Shown here: positions 4,381-29,816 of the stretch, piece after piece | Position numbering within the stretch: the first letter of the stretch is position 1 | How the letters are laid out: every line of letters begins with the position of its first letter | DNA from: a virus | Taxonomy: Duplodnaviria > Caudoviricetes | Strand: one strand, 5' to 3' | DNA: 34,257 nt | Virus record (IMG/VR): IMGVR_UViG_3300031716_000035 | Location: 1 to 34,257 of that record | Program-made: the position numbers and the translations under genes | Notes under the pieces: generated by a model | Seen by the model: the letters and a program-made list of their open reading frames with translations, nothing else | What the model was told of the DNA's origin: nothing | Database searches by the model: none

Positions 4381-5562
4381 ATGAGCCCATACAGCGTTCT
4401 TCCGTACTTCGCGGTTATCGGGTTGGTTACCCTGCTGTTTTCCGCGCCCGCCTTCCGCTTCCTGGATCCTGCGCCGACCGCGCGCCGCGCCGCAAGTATC
4501 GACGGAGTGCGAGGCTTTCTGGCGCTGAGCGTAATGATTTACCACTTCCCGATAGCACTGGGCTATGCGCGGACTGGGCAGTGGCTTGCCCCCACGGCGC
4601 CCTTCTACGACCAGCTCGGCAATATCGCGGTCGCAGTCTTCTTCATGATCACCGGCTATCTGTTCTGGCAGAAGGCGGCCGATTCGAATGGCCACCCCGA
4701 CTTTGGCGCGCTGTATGTCAACCGGGTATTCCGGATCGCGCCGGTCTATCTGGTTGCGGTAGGTGCGATGCTGGTGATCGTCGCAGCGCGCACGGGCTTC
4801 ACGCTGCACCAGCCGCTGGTGAGGCTCGCGATCGAACTCGCGCAATGGGCGGCGCTCGGCGTGCTCGGCATGCCGGACATCAACGGATACGCCGCTCAAT
4901 ACGTTCTGGCTGGCGTGCTGTGGACGCTGCGCTTCGAATGGCTGTTCTACCTGTCCCTGCTGCTGACGGCGCGCTTCGCCACGCGCCTGCATGGCGTCGC
5001 CCTCCCGGTCTTGGCGATCTGCGGATGCTTCGCTGCGTCGCTCGTCGTGCCGGCGCGCACGTGGTTCCTGATTGCGCTGTTCCCCATCGGCATGCTGGTC
5101 GGCGCGGCGCGGCGCGGGAAACCAGAGGCCTCCAATCACCAGTTGGTGAAATCGGGCGCGGCGCTGGCTTGCCTCGCCGCGGTGTTCGTCTTCTGGTCGA
5201 CACCGTTCGGCCCGCTTCAGGTGATCCTGCTCGGCGCGTTCTTCTGGCTCATGTGTTCGGGCGCGACGGTATTCGGCCTGCTGCGTTCGCGCGCTGCGCA
5301 GCGTCTCGGCCATATCAGCTACAGCACCTACCTGCTACAGGGGATCGTGCTCACGCTGGCGCTATCTGTCGGGCCGGTGCGAGCGATCGCGCAGGGGTCC
5401 GGCTATTGGCTGGTCGTACTGGCCTGCGCGCTGGCGCTTGCCCTGCTCTCCGCCGCGTCATATGTCGTGATCGAGAAACGTGGCATTGCGGCCGGACGTC
5501 GATTCGTCAAGATGCTGGGTGAGCACCGGCCGAGTCGCATCGCGGCGCACGATGGGGCGTAA
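4381..5562 (+). CDS. Membrane acyltransferase family 3 (Oac/OafA-like O-acetyltransferase)
   Basis: IDGVRGFLALSVMIYH, AVAVFFMITGY, YVNRVFRIAP, WTLRFEWLFY, LGHISYSTYL and SYVVIEK motifs; multiple TM segments. Confidence 0.92.
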   Translation: MSPYSVLPYFAVIGLVTLLFSAPAFRFLDPAPTARRAASIDGVRGFLALSVMIYHFPIALGYARTGQWLAPTAPFYDQLGNIAVAVFFMITGYLFWQKAADSNGHPDFGALYVNRVFRIAPVYLVAVGAMLVIVAARTGFTLHQPLVRLAIELAQWAALGVLGMPDINGYAAQYVLAGVLWTLRFEWLFYLSLLLTARFATRLHGVALPVLAICGCFAASLVVPARTWFLIALFPIGMLVGAARRGKPEASNHQLVKSGAALACLAAVFVFWSTPFGPLQVILLGAFFWLMCSGATVFGLLRSRAAQRLGHISYSTYLLQGIVLTLALSVGPVRAIAQGSGYWLVVLACALALALLSAASYVVIEKRGIAAGRRFVKMLGEHRPSRIAAHDGA

Positions 5563-5565
5563 TGC

Positions 5566-6249
5566 ATGCGGAGGACGGCAATAGCTGCCGCGCTGGTGAT
5601 AGTCGCGGCTTGCGGGTGCGTAAAGGAACGACGGGCTGTCCTGATCGCCGCGGAAGGTGATTCGACGACCTACGGTGAGCAGGTTATCGGCGGCATCTCA
5701 AAGAGGACTGCTAGCACTACCCCTGCGCTACTGCAGGCCGCATTGCGCGCAAGGTTGGGCCAGAATATCCGAGTGGAGAATCGGGGCGTGCGCGGTGCTA
5801 CCGCAGCGCAGATCCTGAACGGCACGGCTACCTACATCGGCAGCTACGCCAAACCCTACGCGGACGCCGTGAAGACAGACCCGGCGCAGATCGTTATCTT
5901 CAACTTCGCGATCAACGACAGCGCGCCGACAAATCACGAAAGCCCCACCGAGTACCGGAAGGCGCTCACGCTACTCGTCGAGTTGGCGCGCAGCGCCGGG
6001 AAAATGGTGGTGCTCGAGGAGCCGAATCCGGTGGTCGGAAACACCGCGCTTTCACAATACGTCGAGACGATCAAGCGGGTGGGCGCGGAACAGGGGGTTC
6101 CGGTAATCCAGCAGTTTGCGCACACCCAGACGTTTTATGACTGGCCAGCGCTGCTGACCGATGGTATCCACCCCGACGACCGCCTCTATTCAATCAAGGC
6201 GCAGCGCGAGTACGAAGTCATCGCGCCGCTTGTGCGATCGCTTCAATAG
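5566..6249 (+). CDS. SGNH/GDSL hydrolase-family protein with lipoprotein-like signal
   Basis: All four blocks present (GDS, NRGVRG, NFAIND, DGIHP). N-terminus MRRTAIAAALVIVAAC ends in a lipobox-like VAAC. Starts 3 nt after the acyltransferase stop. Confidence 0.88.
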   Translation: MRRTAIAAALVIVAACGCVKERRAVLIAAEGDSTTYGEQVIGGISKRTASTTPALLQAALRARLGQNIRVENRGVRGATAAQILNGTATYIGSYAKPYADAVKTDPAQIVIFNFAINDSAPTNHESPTEYRKALTLLVELARSAGKMVVLEEPNPVVGNTALSQYVETIKRVGAEQGVPVIQQFAHTQTFYDWPALLTDGIHPDDRLYSIKAQREYEVIAPLVRSLQ

Positions 6250-19757: not shown

Positions 19758-20963
19758 TTAAAGGATGTCGGCCACCGCGACCGCCCATTCCGGACGAATG
19801 GCCGCGAAGCCATACAGCACGTCCAGACGCGTGATCAGGTTGTCGCTCATCACGTCGTAGCCGGTGATCATCCGCATCGCGCATCCGTCGAACTCCGCGC
19901 GCGCCGACTCGACCACGCCAGCCGTCGGCATGACCAGGTCAGCCGTGGCGAGCGTGAAGGCTTCGGGATAGAACGCGATGTTCTGGCGATAGGACGAACC
20001 GGCCGGCAGCACCAGCGCGACGGCAGCGCCGTTGGCGGGCGATGCGGTGACGGTGTTGAACGCAGCCGGCGCGGGCACGATGGCCGGATAGATTGGGATC
20101 GACGTGGCGCCCGTGGCGACGTTTGCGGTCACGATGAACTGGCGCAGCGCACCCTGCGTCTGGCCCGTCAGGCGGTTGATCGCGTTGACGCCCGCGATCG
20201 TGATGATGTCGCCCGCGTTGAGCGTGCCGGTAATCGCATTCACGGTCAGCGTGTTGCCGGTCTGGTTCGCGCCGTTGACCGTGCCGCCCGCCGAGAACGT
20301 GCCGTTCGTGTGGATCTGGACCGTCTGGTCATCGAACCAGTCGAAGCCCAGCGTGTCGGTCGTGATCATGCCGGTTTCGTACTGATCCGAAATCTTCTTC
20401 TGCGGATTCAGCAGGCCCGCCAGCGTCGGCACAGTGCGCGCTTCGGTGATCATGTCGAGGATGATCGAGCGATCCATGCGCGGCGCCAGATTCTGCGAGA
20501 GCTGCGCGCCGGCGTTCAGCCAGGTGCTCATGTCCGGCGAAACCAGGTTGCCCGAACCATCGGTCTTGAATGACAGGTTCGATGCCGCATTCGATACGCT
20601 GATCAGATCGCCGGCCATCGACGCCGCGAGACGGTTCACGGCGGGCGCCAGAATGCGCTCGCTGTAATCGTCGAGGGACATGGTCTTTTCGGCGGTGCCG
20701 AACGCGACAGGCACGTTCTTTTGCGTCGCGACCGTGAGCGTGGTGTTCTGCTCGTTGGTGCCCTGCGGAACAATCGCCGGGCCGGTGTTCACGACATAGT
20801 CGTTCGGCAGGCGGATACGCAGGGTGTTGCCGATCTTGGCGCCATCGCGCGCGAACTGATCGTCGTATTGCCGGTTCACCCGGCGCAGGAAGGCGTTGGT
20901 CTGGCTAAACAGACGCACCGCCTCGTTGGTGACCATGTTGATGGTCAGCAGGCTGTTGGCCAC
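19758..20963 (-). CDS. Major capsid protein, P22 coat family (401 aa)
   Basis: GTG start with GGGAG RBS; ANSLLT, KIGNTLRIRLP, LAPAVNRLA, AFTLATADL and RLDVLYG...IRPEWA motifs. Confidence 0.93.
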   Translation of the reverse strand: MANSLLTINMVTNEAVRLFSQTNAFLRRVNRQYDDQFARDGAKIGNTLRIRLPNDYVVNTGPAIVPQGTNEQNTTLTVATQKNVPVAFGTAEKTMSLDDYSERILAPAVNRLAASMAGDLISVSNAASNLSFKTDGSGNLVSPDMSTWLNAGAQLSQNLAPRMDRSIILDMITEARTVPTLAGLLNPQKKISDQYETGMITTDTLGFDWFDDQTVQIHTNGTFSAGGTVNGANQTGNTLTVNAITGTLNAGDIITIAGVNAINRLTGQTQGALRQFIVTANVATGATSIPIYPAIVPAPAAFNTVTASPANGAAVALVLPAGSSYRQNIAFYPEAFTLATADLVMPTAGVVESARAEFDGCAMRMITGYDVMSDNLITRLDVLYGFAAIRPEWAVAVADIL

Positions 20964-21314: not shown

Positions 21315-22055
21315 CTAGCGCCGCTTCCGCGCGTTCTTATTTCTCCACGCGATGAACCCCTTCGGGTCCTTGTCCGGATCAGGCATCCCGCCGTCGGATC
21401 GGCTCGAACCGCCCTCCAACCCTTCGACCGGCGGCGGGGCCTTGCTGATCTGCTTGCCGAGTTCCTTGGCAGCCTTCGGCGCGAGCTTCGTCAGTTCGAT
21501 GGCCATCTGCACCGGATCGAGCGATGTGATGCGCGCGGCCTCGCTCAGGTTCTCGGTCTTGCCGAGATAGGTCACGACTTTCTCGGCGCCCGGCACATTG
21601 GTGAGGACTTTCAGGAAGTCCATGCCGCCGATGTCTGCCATCTGCAGGTTGTCGACCGACTTCTTGAAGGCCTCGCCAAACTCCTTTTCGCCCGCATCGT
21701 TGATCGCCGCGATCTTCGAACTCAGGTCCTGCGCGCCGACGCGCTCCTGATACTTGCGCTCGGCGGCCGCGTCGACCAGCGCGTGCACGTCGTGCTGCTG
21801 CGGCTGCGGCGACACGGCATTCGGATCGCCGCCCGCGCGAAGCTGCGCGATCAGCGTCTCATGCTCGCGCACACGCGCTTCAGCTTCCGCCGCGCGCTGC
21901 TCGGCTGCCCGGCGGGCCGCGGTGATCTCGCTGATGCGCTTCGGCACCCAGCTGGTATCGGGCTGCTGGCGCTGCTCGGTCTGCTGCTCGACCGGTTGCG
22001 TTTCGGGCTGCTGCTGGCCGGCCTCGACTTGCTGCTCGGTCTGGACATCGCTCAT
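21315..22055 (-). CDS. Scaffolding protein (246 aa)
   Basis: Gln/Glu-rich N-terminus, KRISEIT coiled coil, SKAPPP and basic C-terminus; lies between portal and coat. Confidence 0.85.
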   Translation of the reverse strand: MSDVQTEQQVEAGQQQPETQPVEQQTEQRQQPDTSWVPKRISEITAARRAAEQRAAEAEARVREHETLIAQLRAGGDPNAVSPQPQQHDVHALVDAAAERKYQERVGAQDLSSKIAAINDAGEKEFGEAFKKSVDNLQMADIGGMDFLKVLTNVPGAEKVVTYLGKTENLSEAARITSLDPVQMAIELTKLAPKAAKELGKQISKAPPPVEGLEGGSSRSDGGMPDPDKDPKGFIAWRNKNARKRR

Positions 22056-24889: not shown

Positions 24890-26281
24890 CTAGCCCATCC
24901 AGTAGCCTGGCTGCGTTCGCCCGGGGTTGAGAACGCGTGGTCCCTTCGGTGCATCCTGTTTATTCTTGCTGCGGTCGCGCACCAAGCCAGGAAACAACTC
25001 GGCCAGCACCCAGATCCATGCGTCCGCACGGTTTGGCGAGCCTTCGCCGATGTACCCGACCGTCGAGAACGCGGTCATCTCGTCCTCGAGCTCGCGAAAA
25101 TCGCCCACGTGGCGCACCTTCCCCTGCTCGTAGAGCGCAGAGAACGGCTCGGCCCGCACGTGCTTGCCGCGCGTGGCGGTGACCATCTTGAAAGGAGTGC
25201 GCGGCCGCGCCGTCAGGATCGTGTGCTGGACCATCGCGCCGCCGTAGTTGGTCTCGCCAACCACAACGTCTGCAGCGTGCCGGTCATAGGCGCTCGTCGC
25301 GACATTGGCCCACGTGGCGGGACCAGCCTTGATCGTGCAGTCCTGAAACAGATAGGCAATCCCATCTGTGCCGAGACCGCCGGCCACAATGCCGATCTCG
25401 TCGTTGTCCGCGTTATCGACGTCGCCCGAACCGCTCGGGTCCACGCCGATGACCACGCGCACGAACTCGGGCAGCTCGCGGCCCGGATCGTGTCGCCACT
25501 TATCGATCGTTTCCTCTGCGAACAGTTGGTTTGGCGTAGCGTCACTGAATTCGCCCTTCAGGAACCTCTTCTGGAGCCTCGCGCTCATGCCTTGCAGCGT
25601 GTCAAGGTATGACGAACTCAGGTTCTCGACGTTGTCCTTCGGATTGATCTGGAAGCTGGCGTAGTCCGCCGGATTGCGCAGCGGCTCGCCGGTGTCCGGA
25701 TCGATCTTCTTGATGAACCGCTTGTATGTCCAGTGCGCCTTGGACGGCGGGTTGCAGTCGTAATAGGCGCGCATCTTGAGCTGCTGCGGCGTCCGCCCCT
25801 CGATCTTCGTCATCACCTGCTGTGCGAGGCGCGTCACCGCAGTATCGACCGATGACATCGGGATCTGCGAACACTCGTTGAAATAGAGCGTCGCGAATTC
25901 CTTGCCCAGCACCTTTTCGACGCGCTCCTTGTCGTCCAGACCGGAGAACCATATTTCGCTGTCGAGGTCGTGGCCGTTCTCGTCCTTCTGGCCCGTGTGG
26001 ATCGTCGCGTAGCCGTCTCCCTTGTGCATCATGTAGCGCACATGCGGGAATGCCAGCTTCATGACCTTCGGGAAGGTGTCGAGGACAATCGATTCGTGCA
26101 CGTGCAGCGCGCGGAACCGGAATATGCCGTGTCGGCTGCCGGGTGCCTTGATCGCGCGCATAACGATGTTGCGCACATGCAGGAAGGTCTTGCCGCTACG
26201 CGAGCCGCCGAACAGCATCAGGTGCGTAGCGTCGCCAGCTAGAACGCCCTGCGCCACTTCCTGCCGCTCGGTCAGCTTCAT
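24890..26281 (-). CDS. terL: Terminase large subunit
   Basis: Walker A GGSRSGKT, Walker B LYFNE, DCNP coupling motif, nuclease IGVDP / GETN / SPNRADA. Confidence 0.93.
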   Translation of the reverse strand: MKLTERQEVAQGVLAGDATHLMLFGGSRSGKTFLHVRNIVMRAIKAPGSRHGIFRFRALHVHESIVLDTFPKVMKLAFPHVRYMMHKGDGYATIHTGQKDENGHDLDSEIWFSGLDDKERVEKVLGKEFATLYFNECSQIPMSSVDTAVTRLAQQVMTKIEGRTPQQLKMRAYYDCNPPSKAHWTYKRFIKKIDPDTGEPLRNPADYASFQINPKDNVENLSSSYLDTLQGMSARLQKRFLKGEFSDATPNQLFAEETIDKWRHDPGRELPEFVRVVIGVDPSGSGDVDNADNDEIGIVAGGLGTDGIAYLFQDCTIKAGPATWANVATSAYDRHAADVVVGETNYGGAMVQHTILTARPRTPFKMVTATRGKHVRAEPFSALYEQGKVRHVGDFRELEDEMTAFSTVGYIGEGSPNRADAWIWVLAELFPGLVRDRSKNKQDAPKGPRVLNPGRTQPGYWMG

Positions 26282-26526
26282 AGCGCCTCGTCGATGGAGG
26301 ACGCCACCACCTGAATCGGACCGCCAGCAGGGCCTGAATGTTCGGCCTGCACCTGGCTCAGATCAGGCAGCGTTTTCTTGAGCAGGATTTCAATGGCTTT
26401 GAGGCGGGAAGGAGGAAGATCCTTGGTTTTACCAAGAGCATGATTTTGCAGGACATTCAAAAGCTGACTGACCTGTATCTTGGTGCGCACATCGTCCTGA
26501 TGCGTCTTCCTCAGTCGGGCAGCCAT
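26278..26526 (-). CDS. Probable terminase small subunit (82 aa)
   Basis: ATGA-coupled upstream of terL; KAIEILLKK.LPDL and EHSG..GGPIQ tail typical of small terminases. Confidence 0.7.
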   Translation of the reverse strand: MAARLRKTHQDDVRTKIQVSQLLNVLQNHALGKTKDLPPSRLKAIEILLKKTLPDLSQVQAEHSGPAGGPIQVVASSIDEAL

Positions 26527-26693
26527 CAGCGGCCCCGAATGTCGCCTGCGGTGAGGCGCGCCCGCATGACGCGAAGGTGAAGGTGATGCGCGGCCATACG
26601 AGCGCGCTGCTGGCGCTCTTCGGCCTGGATCAGATGATCGAGCTCGCCCGCAAAGAGTGCGCGGCGAAGCTCGGCTCGCTTCGGCTTGGTCAC
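26526..26693 (-). CDS. Small basic hypothetical protein (55 aa)
   Basis: GTGA overlap upstream and TGATG overlap downstream. Confidence 0.55.
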   Translation of the reverse strand: MTKPKRAELRRALFAGELDHLIQAEERQQRARMAAHHLHLRVMRARLTAGDIRGR

Positions 26694-26866
26694 TTGCTCA
26701 CGCCCCGTTCTTTCGGCGCTTTCACGCCATTGACCTTCACCGGCTCGGCCTTCGGGCCCGGCGGCGGATTGCCACCATGGAAGCTGCCCGCCTTCGCCGT
26801 ACGCGATGCATGCGCGCAGCCCGTTGCCACCTTCATGTTGCCGCCGTCCTTGATGCCGCTGCCCAT
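26690..26866 (-). CDS. Small Gly/Lys-rich protein (58 aa), probable first late gene
   Basis: RBS context CGGGAGAGCGAC-ATG nearly identical to the coat gene's CGGGAGAGCAAC-GTG. Confidence 0.65.
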   Translation of the reverse strand: MGSGIKDGGNMKVATGCAHASRTAKAGSFHGGNPPPGPKAEPVKVNGVKAPKERGVSK

Positions 26867-26936
26867 GTCGCTCTCCCGTGAGGTGGTGTACCAATGACGT
26901 GATACGCGCGACTCTATGTGACGGGAAAATTTCGCG

Positions 26937-27209
26937 CTAGCCGATGGTGAGGCGATCGCCAACGCGAAAGTGGCCCCACTCTCCTGTAACCTTCGTGATC
27001 CGATACGAGCCCAACACGCCCAACGCCTCATCCGTGATCATCTGGATCGTCAGCAACTGATTGCCCGCGCGAAGTTCCGCGACGGGCACCACGATCCCTG
27101 ATTCAGTCTCGGCCATGCCCGGCGCCAGCTTCATGAGCGAAGATGCACGCACGATTGCTGGTGCGGCGGCGAGCGCCAGCACAGAGCCAAGGAATCCGCG
27201 TCGATCCAT
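26937..27209 (-). CDS. Twin-arginine (Tat) signal protein with a coat-N-terminus-like segment (90 aa)
   Basis: MDRRGFLGSVLALAAAPAIVRA; GGAGG RBS; NQLLTIQMITDEA resembles coat NSLLTINMVTNEA. Confidence 0.75.
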   Translation of the reverse strand: MDRRGFLGSVLALAAAPAIVRASSLMKLAPGMAETESGIVVPVAELRAGNQLLTIQMITDEALGVLGSYRITKVTGEWGHFRVGDRLTIG

Positions 27210-27541
27210 CACTGCCTCCGAAATCCCCGCGCCAGCTTTGCCAGCGCCATCAGGTCATACCCAACGAGTTGCCCCGTCATATGCGCGGGCTGGGTGCGCG
27301 GACCGGCCATATTCGGCTGATAGTCCACGCGTACCCAATACCGCGGCGCGCGATGCTCCCGGCTCACGCCTGTCATGCCCATCGCGCCAGTGGCATGGCC
27401 GGCCTGCAGCACGCGCTCAACGTCCTCCGCACTGCCTTCGTAGAGCAGCGCCAGGCATTGCGGCGTGTATGGCTTGCCCGGCACCAGCGTGGCCAGTAGA
27501 CATTCGAGCGTGAGCGGGAGACGGACTTTGCGTGCGCGCAT
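27209..27541 (-). CDS. Hypothetical protein, possible winged-HTH regulator (110 aa)
   Basis: AGGAG RBS; YTPQCLA...SAEDVERVL...G..., PRYWV pattern; sits at the Q-equivalent position. Confidence 0.5.
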   Translation of the reverse strand: MRARKVRLPLTLECLLATLVPGKPYTPQCLALLYEGSAEDVERVLQAGHATGAMGMTGVSREHRAPRYWVRVDYQPNMAGPRTQPAHMTGQLVGYDLMALAKLARGFRRQ

Positions 27542-27549
27542 GCTGGCTC

Positions 27550-28260
27550 CTACAGATGCCGCTCCGCCGTCTTCACCCACGACTCAAGCTCGCCCGGCAG
27601 CATGGCGAAGTCGCGGCGCAGCAGGCCGATAATGCGGCGAAGGAGCGGCGTGTGGGGGTGTTCAGCGGCGGTATCGCTCGGCGAGTTCGGCGCGGCCGAT
27701 CCATTGGCTTCGAGCGCCGAACCTTCGCCAGTCGTTTGCGAGCCAAAGTTGGCCGCATTCACATCGGAAGAGGTCAAGGGGGATTCGGTCGAAGCCGAAG
27801 TCGAATTGCTCGAAGCGGACTGGAGGCTCGCCGCCTGGACGTTTCCCTGCTCACCTTCGCCGCCATCCGTCGCACCGGGCGCAGAGCCTTCCGTTGCCTG
27901 CTCGTCCGACGAGGCACCACCAGCAGCGTTTGGGGCGTCAGCGGCACCGGCTGCGGCTGAAGAACCAGCCAGCGCATCGTTCGCGCTCGACGCCGAACCT
28001 GAACCACTCGGCGTGAGCGCGGTCGCGTTTCCCTCACCAATACCCTGCTGCTCGCTCGATTTCGCGGTCGTATCCGCGACCGGTTGCGAGGTCGAACCGG
28101 ACGGCTCCCCCGATTGCGCGACCACCGGCGCGTCGGGGTGCAGGAAGTGCTCTACCTTTTCTTCGAGCGCATGCATCGCGCCCATGATCTCGCCAGCGAT
28201 ACCCTGCGGCTTGTCTTCGTGCTGGATCTGTTGTGCTGCCTGTGCGATGGGATCGCTCAT
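27550..28260 (-). CDS. Low-complexity, largely disordered protein (236 aa)
   Basis: Ser/Ala/Gly/Glu-rich middle between two short amphipathic helices. Confidence 0.7.
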   Translation of the reverse strand: MSDPIAQAAQQIQHEDKPQGIAGEIMGAMHALEEKVEHFLHPDAPVVAQSGEPSGSTSQPVADTTAKSSEQQGIGEGNATALTPSGSGSASSANDALAGSSAAAGAADAPNAAGGASSDEQATEGSAPGATDGGEGEQGNVQAASLQSASSNSTSASTESPLTSSDVNAANFGSQTTGEGSALEANGSAAPNSPSDTAAEHPHTPLLRRIIGLLRRDFAMLPGELESWVKTAERHL

Positions 28261-28298
28261 CTCTTGCCTCGTTTCGTGGGTGGGAAAGCGGGAGCGCG

Positions 28299-28679
28299 TT
28301 AGGCGCCGAAAGCGGCGATGCGCTCGCCGAGCACCGCGCTGTACATCGTCATGATGTGGGCCTGCGTGTTCAGCCGCTCCTGTTCTTGCCATGGCAGCGC
28401 GGCAAAAATGTCGGTGGTCTTGAACTGGCCCAGCTTCTCCCGCTTTGCGTCGAGATCGGCTTTCTCGTCGACGACACGTTGCTGGTGGGGTGCGAGTTGC
28501 TTCGTCATGCTCTGCTCCTGTGGGTTGGACTGCTCGGGATGCTTCTCCATCGCGCGCCTGAGCTGCGCGTCGAAGTCTTGTTCGCGCCGGCGGTCGTGGC
28601 CGCAGACGCATCTGTTCTGGCGCAGGCACTCGGTGGTGTGCGCGCAGTGCCATTGGGCGATGTCGGTGAGGATGGTCAT
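28299..28679 (-). CDS. Phage coiled-coil protein (crAss001_48-like C-terminal domain); alternative start at 28508
   Basis: PHQQRVVDEK..L..K..KL..F...L..Q...M..YS.VL..RI pattern; AGGAG RBS before ATG 28508. Confidence 0.7.
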   Translation of the reverse strand: MTILTDIAQWHCAHTTECLRQNRCVCGHDRRREQDFDAQLRRAMEKHPEQSNPQEQSMTKQLAPHQQRVVDEKADLDAKREKLGQFKTTDIFAALPWQEQERLNTQAHIMTMYSAVLGERIAAFGA

Positions 28680-28987
28680 AGCGGCGCCTCGATCGCGTAT
28701 GCGCGGAAATCCTCGCTGCCTGTCTCGATGTGCTCGAGGTTTCCCACGCGGTTGGTCTTAAACATGCCCATCGGCAGGAACACGCGATCAAATACGCCGT
28801 GCCATTTACCAAGGTCGGTAGGGCTACCGTTGTCATATTTGGTCGGCCCGCATGCGCTGCACAGCCGCTTTCCGCGCCGGTCCTCCATGCCGTCCCATGC
28901 GTACCACTGCGGAAACTGGTTGCAGCCTTGATGCGCGAGTGCGGTGTTTTCGCAGCAACCGCAGTGTTGGCATTGGAAAAGGCTCAC
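28676..28987 (-). CDS. Cys-rich Zn-binding phage protein (103 aa)
   Basis: FQCQHCGCCENTA and LCSAC; GTGA/ATGA coupling. Confidence 0.78.
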   Translation of the reverse strand: MSLFQCQHCGCCENTALAHQGCNQFPQWYAWDGMEDRRGKRLCSACGPTKYDNGSPTDLGKWHGVFDRVFLPMGMFKTNRVGNLEHIETGSEDFRAYAIEAPL

Positions 28988-29460
28988 GCTGCCTCCCGTG
29001 CCGTCACCGTGACCGCGACAGCCAGCGCCGCCCACGCGTGCGACGAGACGCCGTACAGCGGCCCCGGCTGAGACTTGGTGCCCACCTGAGGCGTCTTGCC
29101 GCCGCCGGTCCGCGGGAACATGTCGAGGAGCGCCTGGCGGATGTTCGGGTCCTTGGCCTTGGCCGTGCCGCACAGGTGCAGCTTAACGTCGCGACGATAG
29201 ATGAGGCGCACAGCGTCAGGCGAATGCCACGCCTGCTGGAAGCGACCGATCCACACGCAAGTTTCGAAGACCTCGCGCCCCACCGCCATGCCGTAGCTGG
29301 CGATCATTTCGATCGCGAGCGTCGCGCCGTTGTCCGGCATCTTGCCCAGCGAGTGCAGCAGGTCAGCGTTGGGCATCACGCCGGACTCACCGACTTGTGA
29401 GCCGTCAAAAAGGCACCACCCGCTCTTGTCCGTGCCCGGGTCGATTGCAAGGGTCAGCAT
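28984..29460 (-). CDS. RuvC-like Holliday junction resolvase
   Basis: LAIDPG, AIEM, FET..WIG.F and HAWAALAVA RNase-H-fold motifs; nin-like region. Confidence 0.78.
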   Translation of the reverse strand: MLTLAIDPGTDKSGWCLFDGSQVGESGVMPNADLLHSLGKMPDNGATLAIEMIASYGMAVGREVFETCVWIGRFQQAWHSPDAVRLIYRRDVKLHLCGTAKAKDPNIRQALLDMFPRTGGGKTPQVGTKSQPGPLYGVSSHAWAALAVAVTVTAREAA

Positions 29461-29816
29461 TTTCCAGACCCTCCGCAAAAGCGGCATTCCTCGGAATCGT
29501 AGCCGCCTCCATTGGGCAGAAGACCGCCTACTTCACCGCGCCCATTGCATGCGGCACACGTCTCGCCCTCCACCCGGTAGCACGGCCGATCCGCCCGATG
29601 CAGTACGCCGGGCAGCGAGGGGGAGCCGCAGGTGCAGAGCCAACCAGAGCGGTCATTGCAATCCGGGCATGGATCACCGCCTTCGTCAGGCGCATAGTAC
29701 GAAGGGCCTCCGATCATCCCGTGCCCATTGCATGTCTTGCACACCGGCTCGCTGCGCGTAGTGGTCGCTTCGGCTTTTGGACCGGAAGCATCAAGGTCAG
29801 GTTTTGTCGTGGTCAT
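29454..29816 (-). CDS. DnaJ-type Zn-finger protein (120 aa)
   Basis: CKTCNGHG, CPDC, CAACNGRG and CRFCGGSG; ATGA overlap with the helicase stop. Confidence 0.7.
   Translation of the reverse strand: MTTTKPDLDASGPKAEATTTRSEPVCKTCNGHGMIGGPSYYAPDEGGDPCPDCNDRSGWLCTCGSPSLPGVLHRADRPCYRVEGETCAACNGRGEVGGLLPNGGGYDSEECRFCGGSGKC

Follow-up and report, generated by a model that had tools for sequence, protein, structure and literature searches.

Prophages and satellites are known for inhibitors of virion assembly, small proteins that engage structural proteins through native-like interfaces, and to our knowledge none of these carries a twin-arginine (Tat) leader. Virion proteins are also seen by host defences, as capsid, portal and tail proteins are described as immune triggers (PMC13581612, PMC12578639, PMC13728456), and a conserved capsid peptide of 29 residues is reported to be sufficient to trigger Lit (PMC3014915). 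The STAND capsid sensors Avs7, Avs8 and Avs10 are described as binding a folded interface of the A-domain, and Avs sensing appears to be aimed at monomers (PMC13581612). In the P22 coat, the N-arm is reported to be the scaffold-binding site (PMC9965877). Signals for the Tat pathway follow the consensus Z-R-R-x-hydrophobic-hydrophobic, and small unfolded cargo is reported to be tolerated if it lacks exposed hydrophobic stretches, while unfolded cargo that has them stalls translocation and impairs growth (PMC13673990). Non-covalent complexes are also exported by Tat, with PaoABC and HybOC of E. coli given as hitchhiker substrates (PMC4273604).

We analysed a 90-residue phage protein, P0001, that the original prediction had read as a Tat signal fused to a mimic of the phage's own coat N-terminus. 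At the level of sequence, the analysis establishes a two-part build, coat origin of the payload, selection on both parts, a match between payload and virion type, and optional presence. The design, in which a single export leader stays fixed while pieces of the phages' own virion proteins are exchanged behind it, is undescribed in the literature searched, which returned no description of the family and did not include most subscription papers. The decoys treated in 10.1101/2023.04.06.535777 are described as host ones, not phage ones.

The gene and its phage

The window, i.e. the whole 34,257-nucleotide stretch analysed, is a phage record that CheckV puts at 99% completeness. It encodes an integrase, a repressor and O-like and DnaB-like replication genes, together with a P22-like head module of terminase, portal (PF16510), scaffold (phrog_8865) and coat (PF11651), and the phage is likely a temperate podophage. 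The sequencing run that best covers the region comes from a soil metagenome and may be the source sample. The P22-type major capsid protein P0002 (19758–20996, minus strand; N-arm at 20904–20960, insertion-domain strand at 20193–20228) matches PF11651 (E 6.6e-38) and phrog_283, and its nearest named relative is the coat of Pseudomonas phage PAE2 (61.5%). The scaffolding protein (21315–22055, minus strand; phrog_8865) has a basic C-terminus. The terminase genes (24890–26526, minus strand) comprise the large subunit at 24890–26281 and a probable small subunit, assigned by position only, at 26278–26526. Next to the integrase, at 4381–6249 on the plus strand and opposite the late genes, lie a gene for an O-acetyltransferase (phrog_3333) and an adjacent one whose match is tail-fibre-like; the two possibly form a lysogenic surface-conversion cassette.

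The P0001 gene occupies 26937–27209 on the minus strand; its 273 bp translate into 90 residues beginning MDRRGFL. As had been noted, it lies just upstream of the packaging genes, ending ∼410 bp before the probable small terminase gene in the same orientation, with two small ORFs between. Its GGAGG ribosome-binding site (27215–27219, minus strand) is set within the final codons of the gene upstream and precedes the ATG of P0001 by 5 bases; the TGA of the upstream gene overlaps this ATG. The upstream ORF (27209–27541, minus strand; 110 residues, no family) is syntenic in relatives with and without the P0001 gene. No sigma-70-like promoter was found in 26200–29600, and the P0001 gene sits inside the rightward-to-late operon. 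No family in PHROG, Pfam or NCBIfam gives P0001 a name, a match to NsdA falling far under its cut-off; P0001 itself matches neither PF11651 nor phrog_283, the ESM Atlas returned no usable match, and none of the RNA datasets listed contains the region. The surrounding stretch from resolvase to terminase (26526–28836) is a variable island of small ORFs, different in each of the relatives L076, L078, L079, L082 and L090; here it has a low-complexity acidic ORF (27550–28254), a crAss001_48-like ORF (28299–28679, PF21825) and small basic ORFs.

In the relative L076, whose terminase is 96% identical, the two flanks of the P0001 gene are joined with nothing between, and the upstream gene ends in the same residues, written in synonymous codons without the GGAGG. 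By this comparison the gene is optional, and the difference in L076 is a gain or loss of the gene together with its ribosome-binding site. A second joint, in run X1, skips 26940–27238 and has only 26 letters on one side, so the empty site rests on L076. The leader is present in two of 159 loci from relatives by terminase or coat, and both of these are the phage analysed here; the loci extend 10 kb each way rather than over whole genomes, and at least 1.5 kb of upstream sequence is covered in 57 of the 80 terminase loci.

An allele of P0001 with ∼93% identity is present on two contigs of one run, at depths of 6 and 3.5, the latter low enough for errors. It differs at 26 codons, 17 synonymous and 9 non-synonymous, on 72 and 198 sites, respectively; in the coat-like part there are 10 synonymous versus 7 non-synonymous changes on 32 versus 97 sites. 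Two of the changes restore the coat residue and four give the commonest residue of the family. Across five close homologs, pN is 0.00–0.11 for the leader and 0.13–0.37 for the payload, with pS mostly 0.3–0.96. By these counts both parts are under purifying selection, which is stronger on the leader, and, judged by its ribosome-binding site, its coupling to the upstream gene and this selection, P0001 is a working gene.

Origin of the payload and nature of the leader

The resemblance between the segment NQLLTIQMITDEA of P0001 and NSLLTINMVTNEA of the coat, originally counted as 9 of 13 identical residues, is confirmed. Taken as a pair, the two proteins give a BLASTP E of 3e-4, weak and barely above chance; the pair score was reached by 8 of 3000 shuffles, and one of the 215 other ORFs in the window, an antisense shadow ORF, outscores P0001 against the coat (53 versus 50). 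The family gives a much larger body of comparisons. A first homolog search returned 34 proteins, several of which match the coat over 55–60 residues (P0028, E 3e-19), and hhalign placed these 34 on coat residues 13–67 (P 95.9, E 5.5e-9). We then used a profile of 117 of 168 homologs, picked by eye for an N-arm payload. In the genome this profile has two matches only, the P0001 gene and the N-terminus of the coat (E 3.9e-15), and among the longer proteins of a 5.8-billion database 24 of its 25 matches at E ≤ 1e-6 are PF11651 coats. A coat HMM matched 154 of the 168 homolog payloads (E < 1e-3), compared to one of 1680 shuffles. These results are decisive for a coat origin of the payload at the level of the family, which is weak from the pair alone, and the similarity on which the original prediction depended proves both significant and conserved across homologs.

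Within P0001, residues 49–66 (27012–27065, minus strand) align as a diverged copy of the P22-type N-arm helix, coat residues 13–31. The terminal motif FRVGDRLTI had been read as a copy of AKIGNTLRI in the coat. A subfamily profile places it instead on coat residues 257–268 (E 2.2e-4, versus 0.21 for coat 54–61), and AKIGNTLRI was rejected as its source, although a motif of that type does occur in some family members. Residues 79–90 (26940–26975, minus strand) are therefore annotated, from this weak profile alignment, as a likely copy of an insertion-domain strand. Coat 257–268 falls within the stretch matched by the 126-residue PDB chain 6mnt_A, and the P22 domain boundaries place it in the insertion domain (PMC9965877). 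The payload of P0001 thus likely combines the N-arm helix with a strand from far along the coat, skipping the ∼225 coat residues that separate them.

The copy is not specially close to the coat of its own phage, which ranks 10th of 31 coat clusters for the payload, and 50th of 90 for the helix alone, where most of the 90 are near-ties from close relatives. Over the helix, 38 of 57 nucleotides are identical between P0001 and its own coat, and the same codon is used at five of the nine shared residues. A recent duplication from the own coat was rejected on these figures and on the higher scores of other coats; the low DNA identity and the rank of 10 of 31 suggest that the copy is old. P0001 is also among the most worn copies, with the second half of the N-terminal match absent in four of five close payloads. 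Thus, the P22-type coat origin of the mimic stands, and the word ‘own’ was too strong. The full-length coats found by the family profile are 393–425 residues long, and the four inspected begin at the N-arm with no leader; none of the 25 longer matches has the leader fused to a full-length coat (7,998 candidates scored), which is weak evidence. A match from the queries of GenBank phage records, in Xanthomonas phage PBR31, was set aside as a chance match upstream of the coat, with an in-frame stop and no leader.

The N-terminal part, residues 1–22 (27144–27209, minus strand), is a predicted Tat signal peptide. Its D-R-R-G-F-L fits the twin-arginine consensus, as first reported; residues 5–20 are uncharged with a hydropathy peak of 1.74, and R21 provides a basic c-region residue. 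A cleavable signal is laid out with P at −6, V at −3 and A at −1, and P0001 has P17 followed by V20-R21-A22, which we take to be the likely signal peptidase site, with cleavage after A22 by general signal peptidase rules. There is no second membrane segment, the highest 19-residue hydropathy being 0.93. P0001 scores 14.7 bits against PF10518 (E 0.031), under the curated cut-off of 22.7 bits; 24 of the 34 homologs match this family at E ≤ 0.5 (best 4.6e-4), and five of the 34 have a TIGR01409 match at E ≤ 0.1, P0001 not among them. The predicted cleavage site is followed by an x-S-L-M extension (residues 23–26; 27132–27143, minus strand), which is conserved in the family, although the search patterns selected for it in part. 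When DNA was scanned with only the downstream motif, so that the twin arginine was not required, at least 120 stretches with 115 distinct sequences were returned. Among the matches listed, 112 of the 115 carry the full RR motif at near-fixed spacing, with RR 14–15 residues before the PAIVRA motif in 104, and the other three look frameshifted or chance; the twin arginine, whose conservation had been in question, is conserved among them. Among the loci fetched, the leader was not found on any bona fide bacterial Tat substrate. The AlphaFold2 model of P0001 has a pLDDT of 63 and a pTM of 0.26, with a helix at 55–67 only; the Atlas model has a pLDDT of 0.48 and no structural match with TM over 0.4.

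Family, payload sources and neighbourhoods

P0001 belongs to a very large family: searched with a profile, 1.84 billion representatives yielded 5,638 clusters (50% identity) at E ≤ 0.001 and 934 at 1e-10. With one pattern, the family was found in nine of 185,579 species genomes, all of them metagenome-assembled, and three queries of 50,697 GenBank phage records found no leader-bearing gene, which may be why the family has been missed. The leader matches lie on short ORFs only (218 of 218 have 260 residues or fewer), and in the loci fetched this one leader is followed by payloads that differ greatly, with a median length of ∼72 residues.

Payloads match larger ORFs in frame (E < 1e-3) in 24 of 192 clusters, compared to one of 384 off-frame controls, and at 30 bits nine of 76 match a source within their own loci, compared to none of 380 controls. 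The other 168 clusters have no detected source in what is a small locus database, and seven of 67 payloads match a PHROG at E ≤ 0.01. The sources are mostly virion proteins: major capsid families (phrog_283, 1357, 212, 9953, 371 and the T4-like phrog_138), the portal phrog_156, tail collar proteins, one GroES-like protein and two without known identity; 15 of the 22 payload targets were scanned, the rest being P22-type coats. From the P22 coat, the pieces copied include the N-arm, ∼84–125, 204–260, 323–340 and 371–386, often in shuffled order. In the longest single-domain payload seen (L379:8663-9136), the leader is followed by the greater part of an insertion domain of the P22 coat type (E 7e-11). 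Tail collar payloads are supported for L327 and L359, with L437 grouped there, and the payload of L059 matches phrog_332. Those of L020/L384/P0034, L023, L063, L059/L341 and L066 we take, from labels given by eye, to be non-capsid pieces, presumably the starts of tailspike beta-helices, a domain of lectin-like type, an esterase of which two motifs are left, part of a portal and a polymerase motif. GroES-like genes (phrog_3188) occur near leader genes in two P22-like head regions (L240:7741-8115 and L015:682-1260), and the payload of L262 weakly matches GroES (E 0.007).

Payload type follows virion type. In seven of seven long loci with a P22-coat payload the phage has a P22 coat (five in the locus, two elsewhere on the contig), compared to one of 48 long loci with other payloads, which were searched within the locus only. 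The own coat ranks 1, 1, 1, 1, 3, 3, 7, 8 and 10 of about 31 across nine cases. L025 was dropped from this test because its coat frame is without the N-terminus: on the same contig, the P22-type coat frame at L325:1260-1620 (G002) has no intact N-arm in all three frames, and the leader gene at L025:1863-2198 has a good N-arm copy. The broken frame may reflect misassembly or damage to the coat gene, and, if the break is real, the mini-gene might supply the arm.

Sixteen neighbourhoods were examined, one of which gave no gene list. Six of the genes lie inside or just before head operons, i.e. four between terminase and portal, one between scaffold and coat and one before the small terminase, and three lie among replication or recombination genes, with the others unassigned. 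Two or three leader matches are present in 28 of 279 leader-positive loci, some of these loci being the same contig and not all extra matches having been checked; they include L038, L047/L052, L425, L008, L044 and L048/L376. L038 and L425 have two leader genes each, with different pieces of one capsid type.

Possible roles and comparison with known systems

Our preferred reading, to which we give a probability of roughly 40%, is that P0001 would be a bait for capsid-recognising host proteins, with a Tat tag that removes them. It would be expressed together with the head genes, and through the N-arm copy it would bind a host recogniser of newly made capsid protein, either a capsid-sensing immune protein or its chaperone cofactor. 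The leader would be recognised by TatBC, carry the complex to the translocase and out of the cytoplasm, and be cleaved after A22, so that the partner would be removed by hitchhiker export, membrane tethering or turnover. The outcome would be protection from abortive infection in hosts with a matching sensor.

A constant leader with many swapped payloads points to a constant host-directed module and a variable bait. Since the leader is common to phages with unrelated capsids, it would have to face a host target, of which TatBC is the simplest, and since the payload keeps the frame of its source, is under selection and agrees in type with the virion of its phage, it would have to be recognised as virion-like. 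The alignments indicate that the payload keeps the conserved positions of the coat while synonymous sites diverge. The patchy presence fits counter-defence genes, where it is usual, but is not specific to them. Thus, the membrane-targeted decoy of the original prediction is retained as the leading reading, in a more general form than was proposed, and the poisoning of competing phages suggested with it appears less likely because the payload matches the own coat type and the gene has no sigma-70-like promoter of its own.

Several observations count against a bait. An N-arm helix and one insertion-domain strand cannot present the A-domain interface read by Avs proteins, so the sensor would need to be of another, peptide-reading kind; a capsid fragment could also trigger such a sensor and not block it. 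As the scaffold docks on the N-arm in P22, the partner could also be a viral protein. Sources are missing for 168 of the 192 payload clusters and PHROG matches for all but 7 of 67, constraint is much stronger on the leader than on the payload, the copy in P0001 is among the most worn, and the positions of the genes are not uniform, with 3 of 16 neighbourhoods among replication or recombination genes.

A viral partner is the basis of the first alternative, which we regard as unlikely: the N-arm copy would bind the scaffold of its own phage, or coat monomers that are unfolded, and these would be tethered at the membrane or exported by the leader, to pace head assembly, clear misfolded subunits or hold free coat monomer below a sensing threshold. 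The P22 N-arm helix is reported to dock on the scaffold C-terminus via acidic residues (PMC9965877); the scaffold of this phage ends in a basic tail, 89% of the payload helices keep the glutamate, and they are slightly more acidic than those of coats (net charge −0.37 versus +0.22, p 0.015, for sequences that are not independent). The payloads also keep the conserved hydrophobic positions of the coat and match their own coat type, and the apparent aim of Avs sensing at monomers (PMC13581612) would suit a lowered monomer level. A complex prediction for payload residues 44–90 with the scaffold's C-terminal region scored 0.00 against a mark of 0.32, with controls not folded, and is counted neither for nor against. 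However, L076, with its 96%-identical terminase, and nearly all close relatives lack the gene in the loci searched, so it is no core assembly factor. Furthermore, the payload of P0001 shows no particular closeness to the coat of its phage, the pieces behind the one leader come from unrelated capsid, portal and tail proteins, and the loss of own subunits should cost burst size.

Less probable still is that the leader is the working part, occupying or stalling the Tat translocase or a signal-binding chaperone, with the payload a tolerated stuffer from abundant late genes; export of host envelope proteins would be blocked, or the membrane weakened before lysis. The lower pN of the leader (0.00–0.11 versus 0.13–0.37), the conserved x-S-L-M behind the predicted cleavage site and payloads that are swapped, shuffled and worn freely, most of them without a detected source, are in line with this, as is the report that unfolded hydrophobic cargo stalls Tat and impairs growth (PMC13673990). 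A stuffer, however, would need no frame match (24/192 versus 1/384; 9/76 versus 0/380), no retention of the coat motif after synonymous divergence, no match to the own coat type and no paired copies, as kept by phages such as L038 and L425 with different pieces of one coat, and these features count against action of the leader only.

We consider it very unlikely that P0001 is a weapon against co-infecting or superinfecting P22-like phages, with the fragment entering the rival coat or binding its scaffold and being removed via Tat. The helix of P0001 does score higher with other coat subtypes than with its own coat, the gene is optional, and a phage with an integrase and a repressor is likely temperate. 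In the family, however, the own coat ranks first in four of nine cases and always in the top third, and, with no sigma-70-like promoter in 26200–29600 and a start codon that overlaps the upstream stop, expression from a lysogen is unlikely. An equally improbable role for the cleaved 68-residue peptide beyond the inner membrane, as a decoy for envelope-facing sensors or defences or in superinfection exclusion, is in keeping with the cleavable layout of the leader as generally known, the lack of a second membrane segment (highest hydropathy 0.93) and the existence of a periplasmic anti-phage effector, HXS (PMC13128918), but the coat is made in the cytoplasm with its N-arm inside the shell, so no envelope sensor would be expected to meet the N-arm, and late expression follows DNA entry.

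Returning to the bait with an export tag, its general form, in which uncultured phages would copy conserved pieces of their own virions behind one fixed Tat leader and an immune receptor that grabs the piece would be exported by the host translocase, is put forward tentatively and is rather doubtful. If it is true, the payloads, which number in the thousands, would naturally chart the linear virion epitopes recognised by bacterial immunity. Removal of immune sensors would make the family a new counter-defence class acting by target relocation, with payloads as candidate epitopes for unknown sensors; action on assembly or on Tat would still connect phage growth with the Tat pathway in a new way. 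The 273-bp gene comes with a natural empty-site control.

Compared to known systems, P0001 shares with the P22-type coat (PF11651, phrog_283; PDB 8skg and 6mnt by sequence) the N-arm helix motif and, more weakly, one insertion-domain strand. It retains ∼30 of 412 coat residues, and, with the spine helix, the A-domain and the P-domain all missing, it cannot make up a capsid subunit; the HK97-type fold of PF11651, with P-domain, A-domain and E-loop in about 400 residues, does not fit a protein of 90. With Tat signals (PF10518, TIGR01409) and the hitchhiker substrates PaoABC and HybOC it has in common the motif, an uncharged h-region, a basic c-region residue and the V-x-A end. Unlike known Tat substrates, it is phage-encoded, has a Pfam score under the cut-off and a conserved x-S-L-M running on from the leader, and its cargo, for which export is predicted, is a patchwork of 60–70 residues with no compact predicted fold.

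Among immune triggers, the Gol peptide of T4, with Lit and EF-Tu, is likewise described as a short conserved piece of a major capsid protein that the host recognises as a peptide (PMC3014915); Gol belongs to the capsid protein itself and sets off defence, whereas P0001 is a separate, export-tagged gene proposed to remove the recogniser. Tad3–Tad6, which bind ThsB (PMC13728456), are likewise small optional phage genes with the same proposed class of target, but they are described there neither as copies of virion proteins nor as carrying an export signal, and for P0001 the binding is proposed. Finally, the payloads of the P0001 family match the phage's own virion type, unlike the prophage and satellite inhibitors of virion assembly.
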